DNA of 64,000 bases, taken from contig CACOUL010000002.1 in the NCBI GenBank assembly GCA_902630355.1, positions 59,605 to 123,604 on the forward strand, written 5' to 3'. How positions within the stretch are numbered: the stretch's first letter is position 1; every line of letters starts with the position of its first letter. The stretch comes from Planctomycetaceae bacterium (GTDB lineage: Bacteria > Planctomycetota > Planctomycetia > Pirellulales > UBA7805). This document shows positions 11,982 to 52,429 of this stretch, in pieces. The notes beneath the pieces are model-generated. The model saw only the letters and a list, made by a program, of their open reading frames with translations. It made no database searches and was not told where the DNA came from. The translations under genes and the position numbers were made by a program.

Positions 11982-12579
11982 GGTGTGCCTTGGGCATCCC
12001 GAAATCTTCGCTCATTACAATCATCTCTCTCCATGCGTCTCCGGTCTACTAGGCACTGACCCGTAACCGCATGGCATGGGTGAACGGTTCGTTTCAGCGT
12101 TTCTCAATTACCCGCCGTCCCACCGGTACCGGGCAACAAACCGACCGACCTGCTAGGAATAAGGGGCAAAAAGGACGGAAATTTACTAGGCCGCGTGTTA
12201 CGAGGGCGAATGCATGACGCCAGCACACCCAGCGTCGGTGCCCACCCTGCTCAGTGGCAAGAGGGGCAGGTCGTTGACACCAGTGAAACATCAAAGCCAC
12301 CACCCCCAAAAACCGGGCGAAAACGCGAAAACTAAGTGAAACACCCACTTTTCCAATGGTAACCACCACTCGATGGGTGTCAAATAATCGGTTCTCATCC
12401 ACGCAAGCATTCAGTGCGTGCAGTGCGTGCGTTGCGCAAAAAAGGTAAAACCGGTCCTAATTACGCTCGATGTTCACGATAAGTTCTGCCGATAACAACG
12501 ATCGTAACGAGTACGGCGAGTTCTAGGGGGGAATCGCCGGACCACGGGTGTACCGCAGGAAGGACATGGCATTCCCCCG

Positions 12580-14244: not shown

Positions 14245-14309
14245 CAGCAAGCGATGCAATACACACCGCCCCCTTCCCGTCGCTTGCGACGCCTGCTGTA
14301 CTGAGGTGC

Positions 14310-14804
14310 ATGTTCCTCTCTCCCGATGCACCTGAAGAAGAAGCGGCCCACGCGCAGTACATGCAGCTTGCCCTCCATGAGGCAGAGCAAGCTGCAAAAT
14401 CGGGGGAAGTCCCGGTCGGAGCGGTGATTGTTCGCCGTAGCCAGGTGATCGCCAGCGCGCACAACCAGCGCGAAACTCTCGCCGACCCGACGGCCCACGC
14501 GGAAATGATTGCCATCACGCAGGCTGCAGGCGCAATCGGAGATTGGCGGCTTACCGACTGCGTCCTCTTCGTCACACTCGAACCATGTCCCATGTGTGCC
14601 GGGGCCATCTTGCAGGCACGCATCCCCAAAGTTGTCTTTGGAGCACTCGATCCCAAGGCCGGTGCGGTCACTTCACTTTATCAACTGCTGGAAGATCGGC
14701 GATTGAATCACACGGTGAGCGTTACTGACGGAGTCCTTGGTGAAGCGTGCGGACAGATCCTCAGCGACTTTTTTGCAGCCCAGCGACAACTGGGAAAAAA
14801 ATAA
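14310..14804 (+). CDS. tadA: tRNA-specific adenosine deaminase TadA
   Basis: Shows the CDA zinc motifs HAEMIAI and PCPMCAGAI, the TadA-like VPVGAVIV, and a typical length of about 150-164 aa. Confidence 0.9.
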   Translation: MFLSPDAPEEEAAHAQYMQLALHEAEQAAKSGEVPVGAVIVRRSQVIASAHNQRETLADPTAHAEMIAITQAAGAIGDWRLTDCVLFVTLEPCPMCAGAILQARIPKVVFGALDPKAGAVTSLYQLLEDRRLNHTVSVTDGVLGEACGQILSDFFAAQRQLGKK

Positions 14805-14835
14805 ACCGCCGCCCACACAGGCTTACGGCGAGTGG

Positions 14836-15696
14836 CTACTGCGTCGCGTCGATCCCGTTGGCGGCACCCGCCGGGGTCATCATATTGCCGTACAACATCG
14901 ACATCCTGTCCAAATCTGCTTGGTCGACAAAAAAGAATTCGACACTCCCGTCGCAGTAGGCAACATTAAAGCCTTCCTGATGAAAACTACTCGGCCGACC
15001 CGTGGCCGAAGCATCGGAACCGGTCACATCGTTGAGCGTATTGGTTCCGCCCAGTTCGGCGACCAGCCCCTGACTCGTCTCGCCCGACGTATTCCAATTG
15101 GTGAGACTGGCACTCTCCGAGAGCAACATGGTCTGACGTTTCCCGTCCCGGATATCCTCCAGTCCGACCGAAGGAGCACCGGTTTGGCTTCGATCATGAA
15201 AAACGGCCGTCCAACGTTGATCCGTGGTATTTCCCGACGCGGTCGTCGGCTCTGATCCACCAGAATCTGCTTGTCCCGCGTTCACGGCATAACCGAGTTT
15301 CGCCTCGGTGCCCGTCTCTGCCGGATTACTGGGACAAATAAACATCTCAATTTGGTCTGCGGTGGTCGTGCCGGAACCCCATTCACGGTACCGCTGCTGC
15401 ATATCGAGATACGGCATAATCTGGACAGCCCACGGTTGCGCGGTCGCTCCGGAGCCGGACCACCACCCGGCAAATCGGCCTTTTTTGATCGCGTGATTCA
15501 GGTGGGCACCTGCGAGGTCCTTCATCTGTTTGGAACATTGGGTCTGACGGGCCTGCTCCTGGCCACTCATCACGGCGGGCAGCAGCAAGGCCACGAGCAT
15601 GCCGATGATGCCGATCACAACCAGAAGTTCCACGAGCGTAAAACCGACGTCCCGCTGGGGACATCGCCGAATGGGAGTCGCTTGCTTGTGCATCAT
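14836..15696 (-). CDS. DUF1559 / H-X9-DG prepilin-type N-terminal cleavage-methylation protein (pseudopilin-like)
   Basis: Prepilin site RDVG|FTLVELLVVIGIIGMLVALLLPAV and the C-terminal H-X9-DG motif HQEGFNVAYCDG. The 286-aa size is typical of the Planctomycetes DUF1559 expansion. Confidence 0.85.
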   Translation of the reverse strand: MMHKQATPIRRCPQRDVGFTLVELLVVIGIIGMLVALLLPAVMSGQEQARQTQCSKQMKDLAGAHLNHAIKKGRFAGWWSGSGATAQPWAVQIMPYLDMQQRYREWGSGTTTADQIEMFICPSNPAETGTEAKLGYAVNAGQADSGGSEPTTASGNTTDQRWTAVFHDRSQTGAPSVGLEDIRDGKRQTMLLSESASLTNWNTSGETSQGLVAELGGTNTLNDVTGSDASATGRPSSFHQEGFNVAYCDGSVEFFFVDQADLDRMSMLYGNMMTPAGAANGIDATQ

Positions 15697-15997
15697 ATGC
15701 CTCGACTTGCTCTGATTGGTTCCGCTGCCCTTTTGCTCCGTCGGATTTACAAGGCTTGGAGGTCACCCTGTAGTGCCATTGTGACAGTTTCCGGCAAATC
15801 ACGCCAGTCTTTGCCCGATATACCCCAAAAAAGGTTCGTTTTCTCCCCCGCGCGGAATGTTATACCGCGGGCAACCCTGCGGATAAATCTCTGCGGCGAC
15901 GGAATTGCTTGACCGGTTCGGCCCCCGATTGCTAGGCTAAGAAAGGTCGGTCCGCAGAGGGTGTGATTATCCTTTCTGCGAAAATCCCCAGGGCAGT

Positions 15998-16789
15998 TTG
16001 GACAGAGGCGTGTCGATGCAAACCGATACCCGCTCGCACCCCCACACACGGGGCCTACCCTCCGCTCGCACCCGCACCGGTTTCACGCTCGTGGAACTTC
16101 TGGTGGTGATGATGATCATCGCGATGCTTGCGTCGATGATCAGCTTCGCCATGTTTCGCTCGATGCAGGCGGCCCGCGAGGCGAAGACGCAAGCGCTGAT
16201 CTCCAAACTGCACAATGTCGTCTCTCGCCAGTGGGATACCTACGTCACCCGGCAGGTAGCGGAAGGTACGCCGGAAGAGCAATTGGCGGCAATTCGAGAA
16301 CTGATTCAATGGGAAATGCCCGATGCGGCGGGCGATTTGGTCGACGCGCCCGCATCGCTGATCAATCAAAATATTACGGGGACTGTCAACGGTGCATCGG
16401 GGTATGTCGATGCCCAATGCCTCTATCAGTTGGTCCTGCAAATTGCGGATGATGACCTCGATCGGATCAACTTTTTTTCTGACGATGAAGTGAAAGATCT
16501 CGACGGCAACGGCAGTCCGGATGTCTTTATCGACGGGTGGGGTGAGCCAATCAGCTTCATCCGCCGACCGACCGGTTTTCCCGCGACGCTCTCCGATCTG
16601 AACGATCCCGACAGCCCCGATCCATTTGATCTCACCGATTCGCCGGCAAACGGAGTTTATTTCCCCCTCATATTCTCCGGTGGTCCCGATAAGACGGGCG
16701 GACTCGCCGCGTCGAGCGGAACGCCCAATGCGGGAAACGCCCACCTCGATAACATCCACAATCATCGGATCGACGCGCGTTTGCGTTGA
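15998..16789 (+). CDS. Type II secretion GspG-like pseudopilin (prepilin-type N-terminal domain)
   Basis: Prepilin site RTG|FTLVELLVVMMIIAMLASMI, with the GspG-like elements DGWGEPISF and SGGPDKTGG. The start is uncertain: the track start at 15998 or MQTDTR at 16016. Confidence 0.75.
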   Translation: MDRGVSMQTDTRSHPHTRGLPSARTRTGFTLVELLVVMMIIAMLASMISFAMFRSMQAAREAKTQALISKLHNVVSRQWDTYVTRQVAEGTPEEQLAAIRELIQWEMPDAAGDLVDAPASLINQNITGTVNGASGYVDAQCLYQLVLQIADDDLDRINFFSDDEVKDLDGNGSPDVFIDGWGEPISFIRRPTGFPATLSDLNDPDSPDPFDLTDSPANGVYFPLIFSGGPDKTGGLAASSGTPNAGNAHLDNIHNHRIDARLR

Positions 16790-16922
16790 GCGCAGAATCG
16801 ACTGCTCCCGGCAATAAGTCCCCACTGGAAATTCGGGAATCGGGGGGAGCCGCGGCCTCTCCCGGCCGTTAGCTGATGGTAGAGGTGGCAACGCGAGCTA
16901 AAGGTCACGTGTTGCGATCGGG

Positions 16923-17456
16923 CTAGCGATCGCTCGTTCGCGGCACGCGTCCGATCACTTGCGTATCGTTGACCCGCCGGCGATGTCCCGTGGGCCGCGT
17001 GTTGTAAGAATGCCCTTTGAGCCGATTGGCACTGTAGCCACCGTGCGCGCTCCGTCGGACCGGTCCGCCGACACGAGGGTCTTCCAGGCCTCTACCACTG
17101 CCACCGGCACTCTGGCGACCTTGCGGAGATCCCTGCCGCGCCTGCCGCTCTTGCTCCAGTTCCTTTTGCTGCTGTTCGAGCTGGTACTGTTGTTCCTGCA
17201 GCTTGGCTCGATCGGCCGTAATGCCCGCTCGGGTTTCTTGCTCCTGCTTGACAAAGTTGTAACGCATGAAGGCAGGGCCGAGCAACGGATTCACCATATT
17301 GACGTAGGGACTCACCTTCGGGCGCGTGTAGAAGTCAGGCTGGCTAGGGTTGTACCGATCCTGCGCGTCTGCCGGGCCGTTGATTCCAAGCACCAGTAAA
17401 CCGAGACCACCCCAAAGAATAAAATCGCCCAGCCAACCACGTCGATGAGTACGCAT
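16923..17456 (-). CDS. Secreted hypothetical protein with a Gln/Glu-rich coiled-coil segment
   Basis: Signal-like N-terminus GWLGDFILWGGLGLLVLGINGPADA, the coiled-coil segment KLQEQQYQLEQQQKELEQERQARQ, and a basic Gly/Arg-rich tail. It lies 73 bp downstream of the wza-like gene on the same strand. Confidence 0.5.
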   Translation of the reverse strand: MRTHRRGWLGDFILWGGLGLLVLGINGPADAQDRYNPSQPDFYTRPKVSPYVNMVNPLLGPAFMRYNFVKQEQETRAGITADRAKLQEQQYQLEQQQKELEQERQARQGSPQGRQSAGGSGRGLEDPRVGGPVRRSAHGGYSANRLKGHSYNTRPTGHRRRVNDTQVIGRVPRTSDR

Positions 17457-17529
17457 CGAATTCCTCCGTTTAAATCGGAAACGCCCGTTCCGCTAGGTGA
17501 ATTGTACCTTCGCTTTCCCCTGAGGACAA

Positions 17530-18888
17530 TTAATTTCTACTCTTGGCCTCGACGGTTGCCGCAGCCGGTAGCGTAACACCTCGCCGCAGACGGTTTTCCG
17601 CCGCCACCTCAGCCGGTGTGAGTTCGCGGAATTCAACATCGAGCAATCCGTAGTTGACCATCAGATAACCGTTGTCCGCCCGGACCACCGCAGCGGACCG
17701 GTTGGCAAGCAGGTCTTGGGCAATCACACCGCGATACCACTGCATCTGACCGCGATAGCGGAAGTGATAGACTGGGATTCCCGAGGGACTCGTGGCAACC
17801 TGCCGGATGTCGGTTTTGAGGCGGCGATCACTGAAGAAGTTACCGAAGTTGTTGTTGCCACTGTCGCGGAACGAACCTCCGAGGTTACGTATCGTGGCCG
17901 TTGCCAGGAACATGGTTCCAGCAATCCGCTCGACCGGGGCAGTGACTCGTGCAATCGTGGCGTCCAGTCGGTTCAATTCGCTGGCGCGGATGTAGATGCG
18001 ATCACCCGGAAAAACCTGGTAGTTTGTCGCCGTGATCCCCTGCTTGCAGATTGCATCCCAATTGACCGGGAGCCGCTGCTCGTAGCCACCGTGATCCGGA
18101 CTCGGTCGGGCAATCCAGATATCTTTGGTCGCCTGGCCACCGAGGCCGCCGATTTCACTGATGGCATCCAAGACCGTTTCGCCACCATTGATCGGTAAGC
18201 GCACCACCTGATCACCCAATCCCGCACCGTCGGAAATGACGTAATAAAATTTACTGTTGTAGGCCGACACATCGACGATCACTTCGGGCGCTTCGAGATA
18301 CTCGTCGAGTTTCTTCTCGATCGCATCTTTGACCTGTTCGAGGGTCAGGCCGGCGACATAGACCTGCCCGTAGGACCCTAAATTGACCATCCCGTCCGGG
18401 GCCACCTGATGTTCTCCGGCAATCTGTTGGCTGCCGGCCGTCTCTAGCAGATTGACCGTGGTAACCGGATTGACCAGAAGTTCGAGCAGTTTGTCCTGAA
18501 TGGCCGTTTCGGCTTCGTCGATTGTCTTGCCTGATATCGTCACTTTTCCATATTGGCTGCCCAAATTGACGCGACCACTCGCATCGATTTGGTATTCCCC
18601 TGTGATCGGATAATCGGGAAGCACGTTCTCCGATTCGATCTGGACGATATCGAGCGGCTCGAGACGATAAGGCGCTTTGGGAATCACCCTCAACGCATCG
18701 ATCAGCAAAATGTCGGGCGGTTCGACCACATACAACGGAAGCGTTGTTTTAAACTCTTCGTTGGGAATGCGAGCCTCGGGTGGAATATGCTGTTCGAGTT
18801 TGAAATTGCGCGTACCGAGCGTATGGCAACCGGTCGCAAAAGCGACGAGAACAGAAAGAGCCAGCAGAAAGGCCGGTTTTGCTCGCAT
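17530..18888 (-). CDS. Outer-membrane polysaccharide export lipoprotein (Wza/OPX-like, SLBB repeats) fused to a C-terminal Peptidase-S74 intramolecular chaperone domain
   Basis: Lipobox LVAFATG|C and the Poly_export-like YRLEPLDIVQIES. SLBB-like repeats appear as GRVNLGSQYGKVTISGKTIDEAETAI and GMVNLGSYGQVYVAGLTLEQVKDAI. The C-terminal segment SDRRLKTDIRQVATSPSGIPVYHFRYRGQMQWYRGVIAQDLL...YLMVNYGLL is the S74 signature. Confidence 0.85.
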   Translation of the reverse strand: MRAKPAFLLALSVLVAFATGCHTLGTRNFKLEQHIPPEARIPNEEFKTTLPLYVVEPPDILLIDALRVIPKAPYRLEPLDIVQIESENVLPDYPITGEYQIDASGRVNLGSQYGKVTISGKTIDEAETAIQDKLLELLVNPVTTVNLLETAGSQQIAGEHQVAPDGMVNLGSYGQVYVAGLTLEQVKDAIEKKLDEYLEAPEVIVDVSAYNSKFYYVISDGAGLGDQVVRLPINGGETVLDAISEIGGLGGQATKDIWIARPSPDHGGYEQRLPVNWDAICKQGITATNYQVFPGDRIYIRASELNRLDATIARVTAPVERIAGTMFLATATIRNLGGSFRDSGNNNFGNFFSDRRLKTDIRQVATSPSGIPVYHFRYRGQMQWYRGVIAQDLLANRSAAVVRADNGYLMVNYGLLDVEFRELTPAEVAAENRLRRGVTLPAAATVEAKSRN

Positions 18889-44342: not shown

Positions 44343-45626
44343 TTAGACTGGGGTCACTGACCACTCGGATTCCAGAAAGATTTTTTGCGCTTTTTTGGGA
44401 TGCTTTCCCGTCCCAAATACATCGGCAGGAATGATCTCAAAATCGACCGCACGCTCGACATGATCTACAGCCTTCAGGTTATAACCGCTCCGGATTTCAA
44501 TCGATACGGCATAAATGCCCGGATGTAAATTCAAACGAGGCAAACGACAATCAACCGTTTGCCTCTTACCCGGCACCAAATCAAACGTGGTATCCCCTTG
44601 ATCACTTCCATGAATAATCGTGATCAAATCACCTCGCGAATCGGAAATAATGAAATTGATAAATGCGCCCCGAATCTCTTGATCAGCGTTTACCACGGTA
44701 TGGAAATGTATCCCGTCGCCCATGCCTAGCTTTCCGGCCGAAGCGCCGGCGAGATTTTTCAACTCGATATGCTCAAACTTTGCTTTACCGGTGCCACCCC
44801 GCGCAATGGTCGGATCGGTCAGATCTCGCTGCCCGGTCGTGGTTCCAAGTCTCGAAAGATACGTTGAGACCACGTCTCGACTGGTGGAATCCATCAGGAG
44901 ACGTCCGTGATCAAGCAGGATCGCACGCGGACAAAGATTTTCGACTGCAGCCATATTGTGACTTACGAATAAGACCGTGCGACCCGATTGGGCAACTTGG
45001 TCCATCTTACCCAGACACTTGCGCTGAAATTCCGCATCACCCACTGCCAGTACTTCGTCGATTAATAGAATTTCCAAATCGAGGTGAGCAGCAACCGCAA
45101 AACCGAGTCGCACTTTCATGCCACTCGAATACCGCTTCACGGGTGTCTCAATAAATTTTTCGATCCCCGCGAAATCTACAATTTCATCAAACTGGGATTT
45201 GATCTCCGAACGTGTCATCCCCAAGATCGAGCCGTTAAGAAAAATATTCTCGCGTCCCGTCAACTCGGGATGAAAACCTGTGCCCACTTCCAGCAAGCTT
45301 CCGACTCGGCCTTTTAAATCGGCGTGGCCTTTGGTCGGCGTTGTTATTTGGGTAAGAATTTTGAGCAACGTCGACTTACCAGCTCCATTGGCGCCCACAA
45401 TTGCCAAAGCATCGCCTTCGTTAACCTCAAAGCTTACATCACTGAGCGACCAGAATTCTTCCACCCGACCCAGCGCGGCACCACTGCGCAGATTGCGTAT
45501 TGGGGCCTTGATTGCATCCATCAGGACATCGCGCAGCATTCGATAACGAGGGTCATTCCCGCTCGCGGACTTCTGGCCAATGCGGTAACACTTCGAGATG
45601 TTTTCTACTTTGATGCGAGGAGCCAT
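44343..45626 (-). CDS. Polysaccharide/O-antigen ABC exporter ATP-binding protein (Wzt/TagH-like) with a C-terminal glycan-binding-type extension
   Basis: Walker A GANGAGKSTLLK, signature YSSGMKVRLGFA and Walker B ILLIDEVLAVGD, plus a ~170-aa beta-rich C-terminal domain. Confidence 0.9.
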   Translation of the reverse strand: MAPRIKVENISKCYRIGQKSASGNDPRYRMLRDVLMDAIKAPIRNLRSGAALGRVEEFWSLSDVSFEVNEGDALAIVGANGAGKSTLLKILTQITTPTKGHADLKGRVGSLLEVGTGFHPELTGRENIFLNGSILGMTRSEIKSQFDEIVDFAGIEKFIETPVKRYSSGMKVRLGFAVAAHLDLEILLIDEVLAVGDAEFQRKCLGKMDQVAQSGRTVLFVSHNMAAVENLCPRAILLDHGRLLMDSTSRDVVSTYLSRLGTTTGQRDLTDPTIARGGTGKAKFEHIELKNLAGASAGKLGMGDGIHFHTVVNADQEIRGAFINFIISDSRGDLITIIHGSDQGDTTFDLVPGKRQTVDCRLPRLNLHPGIYAVSIEIRSGYNLKAVDHVERAVDFEIIPADVFGTGKHPKKAQKIFLESEWSVTPV

Positions 45627-45652
45627 GGGACACTTTTATAGTGAACGTGGTA

Positions 45653-46714
45653 TCAGATGATATCCGCAAATTTTGGCTCAAGCCGATAGAAGTACATGCA
45701 GCCAAAAATAAAACCGAGAATCACCATCAGAGTGGAATAACCGAGTTCCTTCCACGGCAACGGGTGCCCGAGCAGTGCCGCCCGGAAACTTGCGATAAGG
45801 CCGTTCATTGGATTGAGCTGCAATGTTTTTTTCACATAGGCCCAAATCCCCAACTCCGCATCAGCCGCACCACCAGCTTCGTTCTGAACGACTGGATTTT
45901 CCGCCTTGACTTCAGTTTCAGTTTTGGCGGCGTTTGCATCTTGCTGAGTGACGGATGGGGTGGATGCCTCGGCAGACGGCTCATTAACCGACATGTAAAT
46001 CGCCGGCGTGGAGAACATCCAGAGCTGAACCAAGAATGGAATCGTGTGCTTGAAGTCGCGATAGGCAACGTTTAAAGCGGCAAGCATTGTGCCCACTCCG
46101 AGCGCCAACAAGATGGTCAGAAAGAGTATCGGAAACACCATCAACATGATCGGCCCGACTATGACTCCTGAAGTATCGGCCGACGAAAAATTGATGTAAA
46201 ACACCATCACCAGCAGGAGCACCGAAAATGCCACGAAAAAATCGAAAAGTGCAGAGCCTACCGATGCAAACGGGATTGTGAGTCTGGGCACATAAACCTT
46301 GGTAACCAGCGGTGACGACATCAACAAACTATTGCCTGCCTGCGCAATACCGACCGCATAAAAATTCCAAAGAATCAGCGCCGAAAACGAGAACAACGGA
46401 TAGGGTATTCCATCGGTCGGCACCTTGGCCATTTTTCCGAAAATGATAGTGAATACGACCATGTACAAGGTGGGCTGAATGACGGCCCAAGTGATCCCCA
46501 ACAGGGATTGCTTGTAACGAATCTTCACATCGCGCCAGGTGAGAAAAAACAGCAATTCCCGGTAGCGCCACAGCTCGCCGACGTTAATGAACGCCCAACC
46601 GGAGCGTGGCCGAATGACGGTGCCACGATTTGCTTGAGGGGGCTTTGCCAGCGCGGCATCGGCCTGCGCAGCGTTCGTTTCCGCATCTTCCATCAACATG
46701 TCGCCCATCAGCAA
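45653..46714 (-). CDS. ABC-2 type polysaccharide exporter permease (Wzm-like) with a low-complexity loop insertion
   Basis: Contains LWRYRELLFFLTWRDVKIRYKQSLLGITWAVIQP, the classic ABC-2 entry motif, six TM segments and LNPMNGLIASFR. A ~45-aa insert lies at 45851..45988. Confidence 0.85.
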   Translation of the reverse strand: MLMGDMLMEDAETNAAQADAALAKPPQANRGTVIRPRSGWAFINVGELWRYRELLFFLTWRDVKIRYKQSLLGITWAVIQPTLYMVVFTIIFGKMAKVPTDGIPYPLFSFSALILWNFYAVGIAQAGNSLLMSSPLVTKVYVPRLTIPFASVGSALFDFFVAFSVLLLVMVFYINFSSADTSGVIVGPIMLMVFPILFLTILLALGVGTMLAALNVAYRDFKHTIPFLVQLWMFSTPAIYMSVNEPSAEASTPSVTQQDANAAKTETEVKAENPVVQNEAGGAADAELGIWAYVKKTLQLNPMNGLIASFRAALLGHPLPWKELGYSTLMVILGFIFGCMYFYRLEPKFADII

Positions 46715-47586
46715 GCACTCCCGGTCACGCTCGTGTATTCAGACACAATGTGATCGACGCGATCGAATTCGAACTCTTGGAGTAACATCTGAAGCTTGGT
46801 TTCGGTACGGTGGAGGTTCACGTAATGACGCATTCTCGACATTGCCGAAGGACCCGACAAGCGGGGCTGCTGCGGATCGACTTCCCATGGATGAATATAG
46901 AACATAAACGGGTGGTTTGTGCGTTTATTTACTTGGGATAGGCAATATCGCGTGAGTGCAAATGGATAAAGACGAAAGTATCCGCCTCCCGATACGGGCA
47001 AATTCCACCAACCGAGCTTAAAGACGGAAGGAGGAAATTCTGCCAGTTGGCCGCAGGTCGTCTTTTGAAAATGAATATCGGGGCGTGCACCCGCAATACC
47101 GTAACGATCGTGATAAACGGGAAAGACCGATGAATCGATTTGAAAGCCCTCTTCGGCCAAAATATCGAGAGCCCAAAGCGACTTCTGTGTGATCGAAAAA
47201 CTGGGCGCTCGATAAGAGATGACCGGCTCTCCCAGAATGTCCTGCAGCACGTCCCTCGATCGCTTCACATCGTCTCGAAATTCTTCCGGTGACTGAGAAT
47301 AGATCAGACGATGCCAATAACTGTGAGATCCAATTTCATGGCCCCGGGATCGCAGTTCTTGTACCAGGGCTGGAAATCTTTCGGCAACCCAACCCAAGAT
47401 AAAAAAAGTGCCGCTTACGTTTGCACTTTCCAGAAGATCGGCGATCCGCAAGGTGTTGGCTTCGACGCGACTTTCGAATTCAGGCCAACGCTCCCTCTGC
47501 ACGCACGACTCGAAAGCCGATACCTGGAAGTAGTCCTCTACATCAACCGTAAAGGCATTGCGGATAGGCAACGATGACGATTCCAT
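46708..47586 (-). CDS. Polysaccharide deacetylase (CE4), PEP-CTERM-locus subfamily
   Basis: The N-terminus FTVDVEDYFQVSAFE is diagnostic for that subfamily. Also present are GHEIGSHSYWH and YRAPSFSI. Confidence 0.85.
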   Translation of the reverse strand: MESSSLPIRNAFTVDVEDYFQVSAFESCVQRERWPEFESRVEANTLRIADLLESANVSGTFFILGWVAERFPALVQELRSRGHEIGSHSYWHRLIYSQSPEEFRDDVKRSRDVLQDILGEPVISYRAPSFSITQKSLWALDILAEEGFQIDSSVFPVYHDRYGIAGARPDIHFQKTTCGQLAEFPPSVFKLGWWNLPVSGGGYFRLYPFALTRYCLSQVNKRTNHPFMFYIHPWEVDPQQPRLSGPSAMSRMRHYVNLHRTETKLQMLLQEFEFDRVDHIVSEYTSVTGSAC

Positions 47587-47598
47587 GGGCAGCCACCA

Positions 47599-48585
47599 TC
47601 AAGTGGACAGAGATCCCAGAGAATCCGAATCGGCATCATCCACTTCGCCGAGTCTTCCCGGTTCAGATAAGGGCTCTGCAACAAGGTCCTCGTTGGCAGA
47701 GTCATCCAAGATATCGTCACTCACTGCCACGACCTCCCGCTCGGCTTCCACTACTCGACTCTTTTCCGAGTTTCCCTCCACCAATTCGTCAAGCGAAATA
47801 CTGCGTCGCTCTGTTTTCTCCACATCGTCCATGGCGCAATCCGTTTTCAGAGGAGAAAAATCGTTGACTACGATCGGTGAGCCATTGAGATTCTTCGCAA
47901 AACTGGTGTGTTTCATCACACCCATCCAATGCGCCGCATCATTCGAGCGGAGGCCTACCATCTTGATGGCCGTGCAAAGGGCGATTTTGGCGTCCAAAAT
48001 CAGGGTGCCTGCCTGGACGTATTCCAGGTCCAACGCAAGTTTTTTACGGACACTCTCCAGGTCACTATCGGCCGGCAAAATGATCTGCGCAAGACCGGTA
48101 ATCCCCGGCTTCACGCTGAGCCGCCCAACATATCCGGGAATTTCCCGTGCAAGAAACTGGGTAAATTCGGGCCGCTCCGGCCGCGGTCCAATCAACGCCA
48201 TCTCCCCCTTCAGAACATTGAAAAGTTGGGGCAATTCGTCGAGGTGAGAAGCCCGCATGAACTTACCCAACGCTGTGACACGAGGGTCCGAAATGCCTGC
48301 GGTCCAGACGGGCCCACTTTTCGATTCGGCGTCGTTTGCCATCGTGCGGATTTTGTAAACCGTGAAAACCTCACCTTTCAGGCCAACGCGGGTCTGGCGG
48401 TAGATGCCCGGGCCTCGAGAGGTAATCTTCGTGAGAAGCACCAGACCGATAATAAAGGGCAAGGCAAAAATCAACATCAGGACCGCAAGCGGCAGCGCCA
48501 ACCAACTGAAGCGGGCAAAATAGGCCGCCGGATTCGGCAGATTGCTCGTGGTATCTACGGATTGCTCAGACAACGCAGCCTCCAC
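47599..48585 (-). CDS. Polyprenyl-phosphate glycosyl-1-phosphate transferase (bacterial sugar transferase, PglC/WbaP-C-like) with an acidic C-terminal tail
   Basis: A re-entrant helix (LPLAVLMLIFALPFIIGLVLLTKI) is followed by YKIRTM and DELPQLFNVLKGEMALIGPRP. It is the first gene of the 15-gene minus-strand operon. Confidence 0.85.
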   Translation of the reverse strand: MEAALSEQSVDTTSNLPNPAAYFARFSWLALPLAVLMLIFALPFIIGLVLLTKITSRGPGIYRQTRVGLKGEVFTVYKIRTMANDAESKSGPVWTAGISDPRVTALGKFMRASHLDELPQLFNVLKGEMALIGPRPERPEFTQFLAREIPGYVGRLSVKPGITGLAQIILPADSDLESVRKKLALDLEYVQAGTLILDAKIALCTAIKMVGLRSNDAAHWMGVMKHTSFAKNLNGSPIVVNDFSPLKTDCAMDDVEKTERRSISLDELVEGNSEKSRVVEAEREVVAVSDDILDDSANEDLVAEPLSEPGRLGEVDDADSDSLGSLST

Positions 48586-49037
48586 AGCCTAAGTCTGTCG
48601 AAAAATCGAGTGAGGAGAAATGAAAGGAAAAGAGACAAATTCAAAACCACGAGTGCCTAGGACTCACTCCCTTACGAAAGGCGACGATCGTCAGTTCTCC
48701 TAGACTACTCTCAGGATAGCTATCTCAACCCGCTAGTTCAAATATTTTGCACGAAATCGCGGGTAAACCGGCCGACAAAATCGGAAAAATTTGTTTTATA
48801 GGAATCCCAAGCAGAGTGCCGGGCATACTCGTTCTTGCAGCCGGAAAACAAGCCGCGCCGGCAGAAGCGGCAATCGCCTCTCCACCATGAGTGCCGAAAA
48901 TCAAGTCCTATCGAGAAATAAAGAAAACGTGACCGAGGCGAGCGACTTTCCCCTTACCTCCGTGGGGGGAGGCCCCTGTTTGAAAATAGGCTGTTTTTCC
49001 GATATCCTGAATCGCCAGTGGAGGCCTAGGCGGCGTA

Positions 49038-49073: not shown

Positions 49074-49136
49074 TGACCCGGGCCATTTCGCGTACTTGGT
49101 CAGTTCCTTGGTTCCCCCAGAGAAGGAGACACTGTT

Positions 49137-49559
49137 GTGAAGTTGAATAATCTCAATCGACGTGAATTTGCAAAACTCACCGCCGCTGCCGTCGGTGGTG
49201 TTGTGGCAGGGACCGCAGTGAGCGGTGTCGTGGAAGGCTCGATCGTGGACGAGAGTCCTTTGCTCTCCGGAAAGAATGTGTGCCGGGGGCTGAATCCAAA
49301 ATGCGGTGGCCACAAAGGTGGCAACAACGCATGTGCAGGACAGGGTGCATGCTACACGGCGAATAAGCATACATGCCACGGATCCAACGACTGTAAGGGT
49401 CAGGGTGGTTGCGGGGCACGTCCCGGAGAGAACGCGTGCAAAGGAAAGGGCGAATGTGGCGTTCCGTTGAGCGACTCCGCCTGGAAAAGGGCCCGTGCCA
49501 ACTTTGAAACTGCTATGAAAGCAGCGGGCAAAAAATTTGGTCCTGCTCCGGCAAAATAG
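49137..49559 (+). CDS. Cys-rich RiPP precursor candidate (bufferin-like) with a twin-arginine signal peptide
   Basis: A GTG start at 49137 sits 7 nt after the strong SD GAAGGAGA (49122..49129). The Tat motif is NRREFAK plus the hydrophobic LTAAAVGGVVAGTAVSGVV. The core holds 9 Cys in Gly-rich C-x-G contexts: CRG, CGG, CAGQGAC, HTCHGSNDCKGQGGCG and CKGKGECG. It lies immediately upstream of DUF692 and DUF2063. Confidence 0.7.
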   Translation: MKLNNLNRREFAKLTAAAVGGVVAGTAVSGVVEGSIVDESPLLSGKNVCRGLNPKCGGHKGGNNACAGQGACYTANKHTCHGSNDCKGQGGCGARPGENACKGKGECGVPLSDSAWKRARANFETAMKAAGKKFGPAPAK

Positions 49560-49581
49560 GCGGGTCGGGAAACAAGCTCAT

Positions 49582-49620
49582 ACTGTGCCGTGCGGCGATT
49601 TAGACGTTGCACGGCACAGT
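49582..49620 (+). terminator. Perfect 12-bp stem hairpin between the precursor and MNIO genes (candidate attenuator / partial intrinsic terminator)
   Basis: ACTGTGCCGTGC (49582..49593), a 15-nt loop, then GCACGGCACAGT (49609..49620), followed by GTGTTTTCG. It lies 23 nt after the precursor stop and 33 nt before the MNIO ATG. Confidence 0.45.
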
Positions 49621-49652
49621 GTGTTTTCGCGTAATCAGAAGGTGGTCGCTCT

Positions 49653-50573
49653 ATGGTCGAACCACGTCTCGGGCATCCTAATTTGGGCCTCGGAGTGGGC
49701 CTGCGTACGGTCCACTTCCCCTACATTCTGGAAAAGCATCCCCCCGTCGATTGGTTTGAGATCATCTCTGAAAACTTTATCGACTCCCAAGGGCGGCCGC
49801 GTCATACGCTGGATCAAATCGCCGAGCGGTATCCGATCGTTATGCATGGCGTATCGCTTTCGATCGGTAGTACCGATCCGCTCGATTTTCAATATTTGGA
49901 AAAACTTAAGAAACTCGCAAGCGAAACTGATGCTCGCTGGATCTCCGACCATCTCTGCTGGACCGGTGTGGCAGGTCGCAATACGCACGATTTGCTCCCT
50001 GTGCCTCTCAATGAGGACACGCTTCGGCACGTCTGTTCACGTATCGAGACCGTGCAGGATTATCTACAGCGACCTTTGATCCTGGAAAATCCAAGCAGCT
50101 ACGTCACGTTCGCCGAATCGACAATGTCGGAATGGGAATTTCTGACTTCAATGACCGAGGCAACGGAGTGTGGTCTTCTGCTCGATGTGAATAATGTTTA
50201 TGTGTCGAGCGTCAATCACGATTTTGATCCTTACGAATATCTGGGACACATTCCCTACGACCGCGTGGTCCAGTGCCATCTTGCAGGGCATACTCACTGT
50301 GGCACCCATTTAATTGACACTCACGACGGAAAAGTAATTGATCCGGTGTGGCAACTCTATCGAGAGGTCCATCGCGGCACCGGGGGAATCTCAACACTCT
50401 TGGAATGGGATGCACAAATTCCACCGTTTGAGGTAGTGCACGCGGAGGTGCTCAAGGCAAAACTTTACATGGAGGAAAATCTCCCGACCGATGGTCCTCA
50501 GACACAAGGCGAATCGACCGGCGAAGCTGTCCTGCCCCACCCGCTTCATTTTGTCGCACCGGAAGTGCAATGA
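49653..50573 (+). CDS. DUF692-family multinuclear non-heme iron oxidase (MNIO; MbnB/BufB-like)
   Basis: TIM-barrel DUF692 blocks are present: [48 protein letters not shown] and CHLAGH. The SD GAAGGTGG lies upstream. Confidence 0.9.
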
Positions 50574-50622
50574 GTGGTCGCCCTGAAGAAAACGTCACTG
50601 GACTTTCAACCCCCATGAACTG

Positions 50623-51534
50623 ATGCAAGAAAACGAAGATTTTGATCTGGGAAAGTTGCAAACGTGGATGCAGACGGTCATTTCTCACGCAGGGGGGATT
50701 GAAGCGGGAATTGCTTCAGAGGAAGCGCAGCGGGAATTCAAAATAGCTCCCGATACCTTAGAGAAGATTATTTGTCGATCGAACAATCTGACCAGCACAG
50801 AGCGACTGGGAATTTACGGCAACGCCTATTTCGCAAGACTCTTGGAATGTTTGCGAGAGAGTTTTCCTGCCCTCGCCTACGCACTAGGCGACGAATTATT
50901 TGACGAATTCTCCCTGGAGTATCTACAGAGATATCCATCTCAAAGTTACTCGCTCTGTGAACTGGGCGGGCACTTTGCCGCGCATCTTCAGGAAACACGC
51001 CCCGATGCGGAACAACGGGCGGCGGGACAAATTGATTGGCCCGATTTCCTCATCGACCTCGCCACACTCGAATGGAACATTGAGCAAGTCTTCGATGGGC
51101 CTGGAACCGAGGGAAAACCGTCCCTGGCGATTGCGCAAATTGAATCGATCTCGCCAGAGCAATGGTCGCAAATAATCTTGCAGCCTGGTCCCAGTTTGAG
51201 GATTCTGGAGTTTCAATTTCCGGTCAACGATTACTACACGGAATTCCGCCAGGAAAAAAAACCGGAAATGCCAGCGCCAAGACCTCAATACATTGCGCTG
51301 AACCGACGCGAGTATGTGGTTCGTCGGTTGGAAATCGAACCCTTGGAGTATCGATTGCTTGAGCGGATACTTTGTGGCGATTCTCTGGGCGATGTCATTC
51401 AAAGAGTTGCCGCTGAGGCGGAAGTTCCCCTCGAACAATTCGCCGAATTATTACAGCAGTGGTTTCAGAAATGGACAACAGCCCAGTTCTTTTCCTCCAT
51501 CAGCTCGCCACAAGCAGAGACACCGATCGACTAG
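50623..51534 (+). CDS. DUF2063 protein (MNIO partner, BufC/MbnC-like)
   Basis: Contains TSTERLGIYGNAYFARLLECLRESFPAL, the hallmark DUF2063 N-terminal block. The 303-aa size and the position directly after DUF692 both fit. Confidence 0.85.
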   Translation: MQENEDFDLGKLQTWMQTVISHAGGIEAGIASEEAQREFKIAPDTLEKIICRSNNLTSTERLGIYGNAYFARLLECLRESFPALAYALGDELFDEFSLEYLQRYPSQSYSLCELGGHFAAHLQETRPDAEQRAAGQIDWPDFLIDLATLEWNIEQVFDGPGTEGKPSLAIAQIESISPEQWSQIILQPGPSLRILEFQFPVNDYYTEFRQEKKPEMPAPRPQYIALNRREYVVRRLEIEPLEYRLLERILCGDSLGDVIQRVAAEAEVPLEQFAELLQQWFQKWTTAQFFSSISSPQAETPID

Positions 51535-51541
51535 TGGTCGA

Positions 51542-52429
51542 TCACGCGGCCAATCGCGCCCTGGAGCCATCTCCCAGGCGGTCCTCAAGGAGTTCGGCCG
51601 CCATCTGCCGATAGTCTACGGCACCATTCGATTCCGGTGCGTAATTAAAGATGGAACGTCCAAAACTGGGAGCCTCCGCCAAGCGTATATTGCGGCGAAT
51701 CCGCGAAGCGAACACTTTTGCTTCTGCCCAGGGTACCTGCTGACCGCGCGATTGATCAAAAAACTGCTCGACATCACGACTTACTTCAGCAGCCAGTCGC
51801 GTTCCCGAATCGAACATACAAAAAGCGACGCCCATCAATTGGAGACTTGGATTCAACTGTTGTGCCACCAGGTGAATTGTTTGCAGAAGCTTGCTCAGTC
51901 CATGCAGCGCAAGAAAATGTGGTTGCATCGGCAAAATAACTTCATCAACCGCTGCTAGTGCATTGATGGTCAGAACGCCAAGGGAAGGAGGACAATCGAT
52001 AATCACGAAATCGTATTCGTCGGCAACCTCTTGCAGGCGATTTCTGAGAATCAGATCCCGCCCTTCGACATTTGAAAGCTCCATTTCGGCGGCCGCCAGG
52101 TCAATGTGGCTCCCGGCGCACGATAAATGTTCCTCCACCTTGCGGGTGGCCTCTACAAGAGACATTTTTCCGCAGAGGACTTCATAAATCGAAGCCTCGC
52201 CTGGCGCAAGTTCAATTCCCATGTGCAACGTTGCGTGCGCTTGGGGATCCATATCGATGACTAGCACCCGTTGGCCACTCTCAGCCAAGGCAGCCGCCAC
52301 ATTGACTGTGGTGGTCGTTTTACCAACACCACCTTTTTGGTTGATCACGGCAATCGATCGCATCGACTTCTCCGGTTGCAGTCCGCTGAGTGATAACTTG
52401 AACCTGGCGCCGCGGGATTGTAGAGACAC
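51542..52429 (-). CDS. parA: ParA/Soj-family ATPase
   Basis: Deviant Walker A in IAVINQKGGVGKTTTTVNVAAAL, plus VLVIDMDPQ and IIDCPPSLG. The likely start is MRSIAV at 52363. No parB gene is adjacent. Confidence 0.9.
   Translation of the reverse strand: MSLQSRGARFKLSLSGLQPEKSMRSIAVINQKGGVGKTTTTVNVAAALAESGQRVLVIDMDPQAHATLHMGIELAPGEASIYEVLCGKMSLVEATRKVEEHLSCAGSHIDLAAAEMELSNVEGRDLILRNRLQEVADEYDFVIIDCPPSLGVLTINALAAVDEVILPMQPHFLALHGLSKLLQTIHLVAQQLNPSLQLMGVAFCMFDSGTRLAAEVSRDVEQFFDQSRGQQVPWAEAKVFASRIRRNIRLAEAPSFGRSIFNYAPESNGAVDYRQMAAELLEDRLGDGSRARLAA

Follow-up and report, generated by a model that had tools for sequence, protein, structure and literature searches.

A bufferin 2-type gene cluster with a conserved twin-arginine leader in a planctomycete

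Gene content and expression signals of the locus

The 64 kb window (the whole stretch of DNA that was analysed) contains a three-gene operon at positions 49137-51534, where the open reading frame list gives, all on the + strand, a small Cys-rich precursor followed by an MNIO (DUF692) enzyme and a DUF2063/RRE-type partner, in the order and at the coordinates reported in the first-pass annotation. The bufA2-like precursor gene (49137-49559, + strand) starts with GTG and encodes 140 aa with nine Cys; the bufB-like MNIO maturase gene (49653-50573, + strand) encodes 306 aa and is recognized by PF05114 and NF050167; and the bufC-like partner gene (50623-51534, + strand) encodes 303 aa and combines PF09836 with PF22106. 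Unrelated genes of the - strand flank the operon on its 5' side (a sugar transferase, 47599-48585) and its 3' side (a ParA-like ATPase, 51542-52429). As previously noted, no DoxX, protease, or transporter gene lies within the three-gene operon; in addition, no second precursor copy was found in the 64 kb window and no SigF/NrsF regulator genes near the cluster. A mobile-element or other foreign origin of the operon was rejected because it does not stand out from the window in GC content and its neighbors are polysaccharide-biosynthesis and housekeeping genes.

A consensus scan identified a candidate sigma-70-type promoter (48980-49008, + strand) ~130 nt upstream of the precursor start codon, composed of a -35 element TTGAAA (48980-48985), a 17-nt spacer, and a -10 element TATCCT (49003-49008). 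Upon alignment with the orthologous loci L001-L003, these hexamers and their spacing fell within the best-conserved block (CCCTxTTTGAxAA ... TTTxCGATAT..TGA) within intergenic DNA that had otherwise diverged. A ribosome-binding site, AAGGAG, can be read at 49123-49128 (+ strand), 8 nt 5' of the GTG start, and both elements are invariant in the four aligned orthologous upstream regions. A mis-called start that would create the twin-arginine motif discussed below was thus rejected, since AAGGAG and GTG are kept in the orthologues and the homologues begin at the same position.

Between the precursor stop and the MNIO start lies a strong stem-loop with a 19-bp stem (49579-49623, + strand), followed by GUGUUUUCG. 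The RNA fold of 49557-49655 reaches -42.3 kcal/mol (z = -4.77), and none of 200 shuffled sequences folded as well. Across 42 related loci, the position of this hairpin is conserved and its sequence is not, with the best 60-nt fold of the gap having a median of -27.5 kcal/mol (length-matched controls, -19.3 kcal/mol) and beating all six controls in 22 of the 42 loci (Mann-Whitney p = 5e-7). The hairpin was not flagged as a terminator by a simple terminator scan, and neither it nor the 5' UTR matched a riboswitch or known RNA in Rfam at E up to 1. It probably acts as a partial terminator or as an mRNA-stabilizing hairpin.

Affiliation of the enzymes and the precursor

Profile comparisons of the MNIO and its partner strengthened the proposal of a bufferin-class architecture. 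The MNIO scored 362.2 bits against the NCBIfam equivalog MNIO_BufB (NF050167; cut-off 310) and stayed below the cut-offs of the HvfB (257.5 bits; cut-off 360), ApyH, ChrH, and MbnB models, while Pfam PF05114 (MbnB_TglH_ChrH) covered it at model positions 2-261 of 263 (E=7.5e-110). A search of PDB sequences returned 3bww, 8hci, and MbnB, as expected, the closest solved structure being 3bww (E=8.2e-46), and comparison of 57 orthologues showed conservation of 97% or more at 103 of the 306 positions, 22 of them His, Asp, or Glu. The partner exceeds both of its Pfam cut-offs, with an N-terminal DUF2063 domain (PF09836; 63.7 bits, cut-off 27.2) and a C-terminal RRE-type NGO1945_C domain (PF22106; 34.8 bits, cut-off 27), and falls below the NCBIfam HvfC cut-off (69.7 bits; cut-off 142); its only PDB sequence matches, to TALE repeats, were discarded as spurious. 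This combination of DUF2063 and an RRE-type domain corresponds to the "PME-type 1" partner of a published survey (PMC12452194).

The precursor itself shows the length, the Cys contexts, and the Lys/Ala-rich tail that had been described for it. Its Cys-rich core (residues 48-110; 49278-49466, + strand) carries C49, C56, C66, C72, C80, C86, C92, C101, and C107 in the spacing C-x6-C-x9-C-x5-C-x7-C-x5-C-x5-C-x8-C-x5-C. A 26-sequence alignment keeps all nine Cys and H78 without exception; across 98 homologues eight of the nine Cys are still invariant, C56 being so only in the smaller set, and among the 120 closest homologues 92 have nine Cys and 23 have ten. We read the core as a tandem duplication of a 5-Cys module whose first copy has lost its third Cys, a pattern that occurs intact (2 x 5 Cys) in the relative P0205. 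The core is followed by a conserved C-terminal tail (49473-49556, + strand; SDSAWKRARANFETAMKAAGKKFGPAPAK), comprising an amphipathic helix (residues 113-129) and the segment GKKFGPAPAK, in which W116, R120, and E124 are invariant and F123, M127, K132, G135, A137, and P138 at least 90% conserved among the 98 homologues; this tail is missing from P0205 and P0218, two relatives with Sec-type leaders. In an AlphaFold2 model built on the 98-sequence alignment (mean pLDDT 56), helix 113-129 is the sole part modelled with confidence (block pLDDT 80-83) and the core is unreliable. No PDB sequence matched the precursor profile.

The earlier reading had found no clear match to the bufferin precursor families, and this holds at the level of model cut-offs: DUF2282 gave no match at E up to 1, and the NCBIfam BufA2 model NF050166 matched the precursor at 17 bits (E=0.0051), below its cut-off of 60. 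The same model matched all 26 aligned family members (best E=2.2e-12), none of which reached 60 bits, and the best of ten further relatives scored 54.3 bits, again below the cut-off. The claim does not extend to the family as a whole, since the Buf2 cluster of the 2025 survey ("Buf2 (yellow)" column, sheet Fig1C, Table S1 of PMC12452194; BUF_6/12Cys) includes two close relatives, namely WP_144997642.1 (P0074), which is 60% identical to the precursor, and REK25741.1 (P0367), which belongs to the same 90% cluster as P0031 (66% identical). The window precursor is itself absent from that table, so that membership was assessed indirectly, through the accession numbers of these homologues. The precursor family has therefore already been catalogued as bufferin 2 and the cassette itself is not new; judged by profile and homologue matches, the precursor is a distant BufA2 relative and not a protein outside the known families.

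These relatives are numerous and widely distributed. The precursor has homologues in at least 1447 clusters, a core-only profile search returned 453 clusters at 50% identity, and the twin-arginine clade spans at least 544 species genomes; all named homologues that we encountered are annotated "hypothetical protein." A tblastn search of the core against plasmids for canonical BufA2 genes yielded only one unannotated Kitasatospora match. Among 80 related loci, the MNIO adjoins the precursor gene in 61, mostly directly downstream, and the partner gene does so in 53, an association far beyond chance, with the order precursor, MNIO, partner kept in most of the 61. Roughly 14-19 of the 80 loci have no MNIO within 7 kb of the precursor, and some of these stand-alone copies share a genome with an MNIO-linked locus (e.g., L006 and L016 of JTS-AC191). 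DoxX is the only recurrent extra neighbor (~9 of 80 loci); transporter, protease, sigma/anti-sigma, copper, and Tat genes do not recur beside the cluster in these 80 loci, where other apparently recurrent neighbor groups proved to be antisense ORF artefacts. Consecutive accessions of Planctopirus limnophila (Table S2, PMC12452194), whose precursors were not among the best 120 of the second homologue search, fit the layout precursor-MNIO-DoxX-precursor-DUF2063, which L013 and L026, among other loci, also show.

The twin-arginine leader and the export route

The N terminus of the precursor has the features of a Tat-type signal peptide (residues 1 to ~34; 49137-49238, + strand), as judged by its motif and conservation, and the twin-arginine motif followed by a hydrophobic stretch that the first-pass annotation had pointed out proved to be a property of the whole clade. 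It consists of an n-region (MKLNNLN), the motif RREFAKL, and a Gly-rich h-region (LTAAAVGGVVAGTAVSGVV), with the motif proper running N7-R8-R9-E10-F11-A12-K13-L14 and the two arginine codons at 49158-49163; a signal peptidase I site is probable after G30 or G34 under the -3/-1 rule. Across 98 homologues R8, R9, F11, L14, A18, G21, and G25 are invariant, A17, A18, G20, G21, and G25 of the h-region are at least 90% conserved, and this level of conservation is reached by nine signal-peptide positions in total (RR, F, L, AA, GG, and G). The clade motif is [NST]-R-R-[DE]-F-x-[KR]-L followed by an uncharged stretch. It is present in all 120 closest homologues, of which 115 match RR[DE]F with a longest uncharged run of 13-30 residues behind it. 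Of 89 gene copies from 80 genomes that span Planctomycetota, Verrucomicrobiota, and Acidobacteriota, at least 87 carry it (82 by the strict pattern and 5 more by eye). Among the 150 best 50%-identity representatives it was found in 81, many of the others being N-terminally truncated fragments. Both arginines are invariant in more than 300 sequences.

The physical character of the h-region points in the same direction. Its mean Kyte-Doolittle value is 1.51 (n=303) compared with 2.0-2.35 in four Sec-type relatives, and its G/S/T fraction is 0.35 compared with 0.21-0.29; lower hydrophobicity is the direction expected for Tat signals, and the motif fits the Tat consensus S-R-R-x-F-L-K (PMC7317946). 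Tat profile models gave sub-threshold scores for the precursor, at 16.4 bits for TIGR01409 (just under the cut-off of 16.7) and 18.9 bits for PF10399 (E=0.00097; cut-off 24), and at E up to 0.1 PF10399 matched 11 and TIGR02811 matched 9 of 26 family members. Classical Sec leaders occur on the same core in a few distant relatives (P0205, P0218, P0208, and P0233), so the twin arginines are a trait of the clade and not a requirement of the core. The 64 kb window contains no tatA or tatC gene, and a search of it for TatA-like motifs gave none; TatA/B and TatC have been reported for a different planctomycete, Kuenenia (PMC2881027). A lipobox is also present in many of the second or stand-alone copies, which are thereby Tat-lipoprotein-like.

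Taken with the affiliation of the enzymes, we regard it as probable that the locus is a bufABC-type cluster for a Buf2-class bufferin metallophore whose precursor leaves the cytoplasm by Tat and not by Sec. Published work describes Buf2 leaders as Sec signals (PMC11626156, PMC12452194), and canonical BufA2 leaders were compared here through those descriptions and through the four Sec-type relatives. We found no mention of Tat in the bufferin and MNIO papers examined, and the locus would represent a Tat-type export variant, apparently not reported before, of a known RiPP class, insofar as an export route can be read from sequence.

A different function of the same leader also has to be weighed, as conservation beyond what export needs and the internal motif of the DoxX-bufferin fusions suggest that the leader may be recognized by the maturase complex, either alongside a role in export or in place of it. 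In its strong form, which we consider unlikely, the cluster is still a Buf2 cluster, and N-R-R-D/E-F-x-K/R-L-T-A-A-A-x-G-G is mainly a RiPP leader recognized by BufB-BufC, with export by Sec or by either pathway and the twin arginines serving as a positive n-region. Conservation that runs past the arginines into the h-region would be unusual for a plain signal peptide, and the fusions (P0140, P0151, and P0154) retain the motif where an N-terminal Tat role is impossible; the survey moreover reports preliminary evidence that the sequence recognized by BufB-BufC includes the signal peptide (PMC12452194), many Tat signals can engage Sec too (PMC7317946), and the sub-threshold Tat scores given above are consistent with such a role. 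Against this, the motif agrees with the Tat consensus wherever that consensus is informative (polar, RR, x, F, x, K/R), and both arginines are strictly retained, whereas Sec n-regions interchange Lys and Arg. The motif also persists in stand-alone copies without a nearby maturase gene, the Gly-rich h-region has a lower hydrophobicity than that of the Sec-type relatives, and the signal peptide of Caulobacter BufA1 is dispensable for modification (PMC11626156). Recognition by the maturase complex and export by Tat are, in any case, not mutually exclusive.

Proposed pathway and comparison with known systems

Under the favored reading of a Tat-exported Buf2-class bufferin, transcription would start from the conserved sigma-70-like promoter, and the hairpin 3' of the precursor gene would allow precursor mRNA to exceed enzyme mRNA. 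Modification would take place in the cytoplasm, where the BufB-type multi-iron oxidase, together with the DUF2063/RRE partner, would oxidize several of the nine Cys to 5-thiooxazoles, each with a shift of -4 Da, by extension from the characterized Caulobacter Buf1 and Buf2. The twin-arginine leader would then take the finished, possibly folded product of ~106 aa to the Tat translocon, which acts strictly after translation, and signal peptidase I would trim the ~30-34 leader residues. By homology, the mature peptide may serve as a periplasmic copper-binding buffer.

Cofactor-containing Tat substrates of the TorA/TorD type, which are served by signal-binding proofreading chaperones, offer a parallel in their N-terminal S/T-R-R-x-F-x-K signal on a protein that is completed in the cytoplasm before export and in a dedicated cytoplasmic partner encoded beside the substrate gene. 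They differ in that here a post-translational modification, affecting backbone and Cys side chains, would take the place of the "cofactor," and the analogy, with the DUF2063 partner as signal-peptide binder, is only a hypothesis. A more far-reaching version, in which the bufferins of the clade are exported by Tat finished, folded, and possibly copper-loaded, carrying cytoplasmic Cu(I) out as cargo, with the partner as a proofreading chaperone that masks the leader until all Cys are modified, appears to us quite improbable.

Least probable of all is that the Cys-rich protein is a small Tat-exported metalloprotein and not a thiooxazole RiPP, with a metal or iron-sulfur cluster acquired in the cytoplasm by its nine Cys and single His and the MNIO and partner performing other chemistry or serving another substrate: classical Tat substrates are indeed cofactor-containing proteins folded in the cytoplasm (PMC7317946), the invariant Cys and H78 could form a cluster-binding site, ~14-19 of 80 loci have no nearby MNIO, and core relatives occur fused to ferritin-like and DoxX domains, but a BufB-type MNIO sits beside the precursor in 61 of 80 loci, the enzyme scores above the cut-off of the bufferin-maturase equivalog, homology links the core to BufA2, whose central Cys have been experimentally converted with -4 Da shifts (PMC11626156), and some of the stand-alone copies come from genomes that also have an MNIO-linked locus.

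Among characterized systems, bufferin 2 of Caulobacter vibrioides (BufA2/BufB2/BufC2; Leprevost et al., PNAS 2024, PMC11626156; Microb Genom 2025, PMC12452194) is alike in its precursor-MNIO-DUF2063 order without DoxX, in its BufB-equivalog MNIO and DUF2063/RRE-type partner, and in its small, secreted, Cys-rich and Gly/Lys-rich precursor matching the BufA2 model. The characterized product contains a CysI-CysVI disulfide and four central Cys that are each shifted by -4 Da (PMC11626156). The window precursor differs in its invariant twin arginines in place of the described Sec signal, in its nine conserved Cys (read as a degenerate 2 x 5-Cys duplication) compared with the six or twelve of the BUF_6/12Cys family, in its additional conserved C-terminal amphipathic helix, and in its low score on the BufA2 model (17 bits against a cut-off of 60); its family resides in Planctomycetota, Verrucomicrobiota, and Acidobacteriota, and SigF/NrsF genes are lacking near the window cluster. 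Bufferin 1 (DUF2282 BufA1; bufABCD) follows the same enzyme-plus-partner logic, with the same proposed conversion of Cys to 5-thiooxazoles and the same proposed role in periplasmic copper buffering, but the window precursor has no DUF2282 match and the operon has no DoxX (bufD). Oxazolin (HvfA-HvfB-HvfC) and the other "captophorins" (fontiphorin, gonophorin, bulbicupramide) likewise derive from clusters of an MNIO and a PME-type-1 (DUF2063-RRE) partner, which turn Cys residues in secreted copper-binding peptides into 5-thiooxazoles and have been proposed as a single RiPP class (PMC13097082). Relative to oxazolin, the window enzymes fall below the HvfB and HvfC cut-offs and the precursor has no EGKCG repeats.

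The survey presents general Sec signals as a hallmark of bufferins and asks how export is delayed until modification is complete (PMC12452194). The invariant twin-arginine leader suggests one natural answer to this question because Tat is strictly post-translational and accepts folded cargo. Were the more far-reaching version above correct, with finished, folded bufferins leaving by Tat under the control of the partner, no natural RiPP would have been shown to use this pathway earlier, and the version would also explain how premature export of unmodified precursors is avoided. A small but real consequence is that genome-mining rules that insist on Sec-type leaders or on the NCBIfam cut-off for BufA2 will miss or mislabel such precursors. 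The clade also offers material for natural comparison, since homologous cores occur with Sec-type and with Tat-type leaders, and soluble and lipoprotein forms occur together in single operons.

Operon organization and bufferin assignment

The operon at 49137-51534 comprises three ORFs, all on the forward strand, encoding a 140-aa precursor read from a GTG start (49137-49559), an MNIO of 306 aa (49653-50573), and a partner protein of 303 aa (50623-51534), and these positions agree exactly with the three-gene cassette proposed in the first-pass annotation. The genes on either side are unrelated and lie on the reverse strand: one encodes a bacterial sugar transferase (47599-48585), with which an extended polysaccharide-biosynthesis cluster ends, and the other a ParA-like ATPase (51542-52429). 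Genes for alanine dehydrogenase, EngA/Der, uracil-DNA glycosylase, and a Ser/Thr kinase lie farther downstream. Gene annotation of the operon and its flanks bore out the earlier statement that the operon stops at three genes and lacks genes for DoxX, a protease, or a transporter, and no second precursor copy was found within the 64-kb window. The base composition of the operon is unremarkable. Among the matches listed from public genomes, the nearest relative is locus L001 from a marine “Pirellulales bacterium” MAG (99% identity), followed by “Planctomycetaceae bacterium TMED10” (~87% identity), which identifies the window as planctomycete DNA.

The wider window holds further features. A long gene run on the reverse strand (27878-48585) lies upstream of the operon, and its four nearest annotated genes (44343-48585, reverse strand) code for an ABC transporter pair of the Wzm/Wzt type, a DUF3473-bearing polysaccharide deacetylase, and the initiating sugar transferase; the run looks like a locus for polysaccharide biosynthesis and export that is unrelated to the bufferin operon. 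Two adjacent, very large ORFs of 1464 and 1446 aa (3148-7542 and 7641-11981, reverse strand) sit beside a segment of raised GC content (12001-18000; 0.58 against ~0.52 elsewhere in the window).

The identity of the maturation enzymes is supported by profile comparisons. The MNIO matches Pfam PF05114 (MbnB_TglH_ChrH) from end to end (E = 7.5e-110) and passes the NCBIfam equivalog “MNIO family bufferin maturase” (BufB; cut-off 310 bits) with a score of 362.2; it stays below the NCBIfam cut-offs for HvfB, ApyH, ChrH, and MbnB. When 57 orthologues are compared, 103 of the 306 positions are conserved at 97% or more, and 22 of these are His, Asp, or Glu, as an intact multi-iron enzyme would be expected to show; the closest solved structure by sequence is 3bww. 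The partner carries a DUF2063 domain and an NGO1945 C-terminal (RRE-type) domain, both over the Pfam cut-offs, and corresponds to “PME-type 1”, the partner that accompanies bufferin-type MNIOs.

The precursor itself had been described as resembling, without clearly matching, the known precursor families. By profile, the precursor reaches only 17 bits against the NCBIfam BufA2 cut-off of 60, no Pfam family is matched at threshold, and the BufA2 cut-off is reached by none of 26 aligned family members and by none of 10 further relatives in a separate scan. All 26 aligned members nevertheless match the BufA2 model (best E = 2.2e-12), which places the family, by this model, as a remote BufA2 branch. 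The question of membership was settled by homologues listed in the tables of a 2025 MNIO/bufferin survey (PMC12452194). The “Buf2 (yellow)” column of its Table S1 (sheet Fig1C) contains WP_144997642.1, the Polystyrenella longa homologue P0074 that is 60% identical to the window precursor, and likewise REK25741.1, which is homologue P0367 and shares a 90% cluster with P0031 (66% identical to the window precursor). In Table S2 of the same source, the consecutive Planctopirus limnophila accessions WP_013111510 to WP_013111514 comprise two Buf_6-12Cys hits and a single representative each of MNIO, DoxX, and DUF2063, and a similar accession run is given for Opitutus terrae. The P. limnophila run matches the precursor-MNIO-DoxX-precursor-partner layout of related loci such as L013 and L026, and the identity of DoxX was confirmed for L026. 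Since the survey lists close homologues under Buf2, the precursor family is, going by these tables, already catalogued as bufferin 2; the window cassette is a further member of this published family and, for that reason, ordinary as a cassette. We regard the bufferin assignment, taken on its own, as very likely. The window precursor departs from the stated features of Buf2 in having nine Cys in place of six or twelve, and a twin-arginine leader where a Sec signal is described.

The family is large, with at least 1447 clusters of precursor homologues at 90% identity, the named homologues among the clusters listed being annotated “hypothetical protein”, and with relatives in at least 544 genomes when each species was represented by a single genome. 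Among the genomes listed, the hosts are mostly Planctomycetota, with some Verrucomicrobiota and Acidobacteriota and a few others, and a profile of the core alone recovered 453 clusters at 50% identity. In the alignment, a conserved leader is joined through a variable linker to a short hydrophobic motif, PLL, which is also conserved and sits directly ahead of the Cys-rich core. Nine Cys and a single His are invariant in this core, which is followed by a conserved C-terminal helix carrying W116, R120, and E124, the sole part modelled confidently by AlphaFold2. Two intact copies of a 5-Cys module, C-x5-C-x5-C-x8-C-x5-C, occur in the relative P0205, and the Cys spacing of the precursor reads as a tandem duplication of this module, with nine Cys because the first copy would have lost its third. 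Nine Cys are found in 92 of the 120 closest homologues and ten in 23. Separately, DUF7640 (Pfam PF24646) gave sub-threshold matches in 8 of 26 family members (best E = 5e-6), and precomputed PF24646 matches are present in several database homologues of the precursor.

The twin-arginine leader

The feature that sets this clade apart is its leader. The twin-arginine motif reported in the first-pass annotation is correct and clade-wide, with R8, R9, F11, and L14 invariant across 98 homologues. An RR pair near residue 8 is present in all 120 closest homologues, nearly always within [NST]-R-R-[DE]-F-x-[KRQ]-L, behind which 13-30 residues in a row are uncharged. The strict RR pattern fits 82 of the 89 gene copies that were taken straight from the sequences of 80 genomes; five of the other seven are obvious RR leaders outside it (e.g., SRRDFLKKL and SRRNFFNKL), one has P-R in place of R-R, and one is mis-parsed. 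When homologues are clustered at 50% identity, 81 of the top 150 representatives also have the motif, many of the others being N-terminally truncated fragments. Tat signals are described with the consensus S-R-R-x-F-L-K, whose Phe ranks second in conservation to the arginines, and with a Gly-rich, moderately hydrophobic h-region (PMC7317946), and the motif and h-region of the precursor fit this description. The mean Kyte-Doolittle value of the h-region is 1.51 in RR leaders against 2.0-2.35 in four Sec-type relatives. Matches to Tat models are weak but consistent with a Tat reading, all falling below threshold: PF10399 (Rieske Tat signal) at E = 0.00097 and TIGR01409 at 16.4 bits (cut-off 16.7) for the precursor, and TIGR02811 in 9 of 26 family members. 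The same core is also found behind classical Sec leaders (P0205 and P0218) and Sec leaders with a lipobox (P0208 and P0233); the RR leader is therefore not demanded by the core.

A Tat-type leader on bufferin precursors, including forms with a lipobox, would be the variant feature of this clade, and it contradicts the description of published bufferin leaders as “Sec-dependent”. The accessible text of the bufferin/MNIO literature examined makes no mention of Tat or twin-arginine signals, and a literature search for natural RiPP precursors with a twin-arginine leader returned only engineering or unrelated papers. The survey employed SignalP 6, which reports Tat classes (PMC12452194); its authors may therefore have seen Tat-type leaders without discussing them, and the field may already be aware of them through SignalP output. 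The Tat-type leader bears on a question left by the literature, namely how premature export is avoided.

A different reading of the same conservation is that the leader is chiefly what the maturase complex recognises, and that export runs by Sec or by both routes. Conservation does extend deep into the h-region, the RR motif is retained internally in DoxX-bufferin fusions, and the survey authors report preliminary evidence that the signal peptide contributes to recognition (PMC12452194). Recognition and Tat export are compatible in one leader, and a dual function is plausible; we consider a chiefly recognition role unlikely, at perhaps a one-in-five level of belief. That the precursor is instead a Tat-exported, cofactor-loaded metalloprotein and no thiooxazole RiPP is very improbable, given its synteny with the MNIO and partner genes and the BufA2/BufB homology.

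Proposed maturation route and expression signals

Under the preferred reading of a Tat-exported bufferin, the precursor would be produced in excess, BufB and BufC would oxidise several of its Cys to 5-thiooxazoles in the cytoplasm, and the twin-arginine leader would then hand the finished product to Tat, which acts post-translation. Cleavage by signal peptidase I at about residue 30-34 would leave a mature peptide of ~106 aa as a periplasmic copper buffer. The thiooxazole chemistry and the copper role are inferred by analogy with Caulobacter Buf1 and Buf2; in Buf2, a disulfide joins the first and last Cys, and each of the four central Cys carries a -4 Da change (PMC11626156). The Tat route is suggested by the leader sequence. 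Taken as a whole, a Buf2-type bufferin that is oxidised in the cytoplasm, exported by Tat, and buffers copper is, in our judgement, a probable description of this system.

Upstream of the precursor, a candidate sigma-70-like promoter on the forward strand (48980-49008; TTGAAA, 17 nt, TATCCT) is the best-conserved block in the DNA upstream of three orthologous loci, which has diverged elsewhere, and the AAGGAG ribosome-binding site and GTG start are invariant among orthologous loci. Between the precursor stop and the MNIO start lies a forward-strand hairpin with a 19-bp stem (49579-49623; z = -4.8), and related loci carry an equally strong hairpin of different sequence at the same position, often with a T-run after it. 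Folding the gap in 42 related loci gave a median of -27.5 kcal/mol against -19.3 for controls (p = 5e-7), and in 22 of these loci the hairpin surpasses each of six controls in strength. Neither the hairpin nor the 5' UTR is matched by an Rfam family. RiPP operons commonly attenuate transcription, or stabilise the message, past the precursor gene, and the hairpin likely acts in one of these two ways to set the precursor-to-enzyme ratio.

Leader variants, stand-alone precursors, and fusions

Many related loci encode two precursors, with the second copy 1.5-2.5 kb from the first (L009, L013, L023, L026, L036, L056, L060, and L065) or with two adjacent copies (L004 and L052). In two-precursor clusters, the Tat leader of one precursor ends in a cleavage site of the A-x-A type, and that of the other is followed by a lipobox (e.g., LLGCSQG or LVGCGGG). 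From its sequence, the RR-plus-lipobox form looks like a Tat-exported lipoprotein; if so, one cluster would yield soluble and membrane-anchored bufferin together. RR leaders with a lipobox account for 63 of 378 proteins, and those without for 255. At loci L015, L020, L022, L027, L032, L038, L044, L050, L053, L055, L059, L067, L069, and L071, the precursor gene stands alone, as neither an MNIO nor a partner gene occurs within distances of up to 7 kb; most of these genes encode the longer Tat-plus-lipobox type, in which the linker is acidic or rich in Pro.

Fusions were also observed. The homologues P0140, P0149, P0150, P0151, and P0154 (~357-410 aa) begin with a DoxX membrane domain (Pfam PF07681; match confirmed in P0140 and P0149), continue with an internal RREFAKL...AG segment, and end in a bufferin-like core and tail; such a chimaera is not among the fusions described in the accessible text of the 2025 survey (PMC12452194). 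In large proteins of 472-714 aa (P0210, P0221, P0267, and P0269), the Cys-rich core stands at the C-terminal end, and an N-terminal Pfam “Ferritin-like” domain (PF12902) was confirmed in P0210, P0221, and P0267. A further subgroup of 200-250 aa (P0247, P0229, P0261, P0262, P0264, P0266, P0227, and similar) carries the core at the very N-terminus (“ELHxC[AM]GLNAC...”), without a signal peptide and with a long C-terminal extension that has no Pfam match, and may be a branch of the family that stays in the cytoplasm or is targeted in another way.
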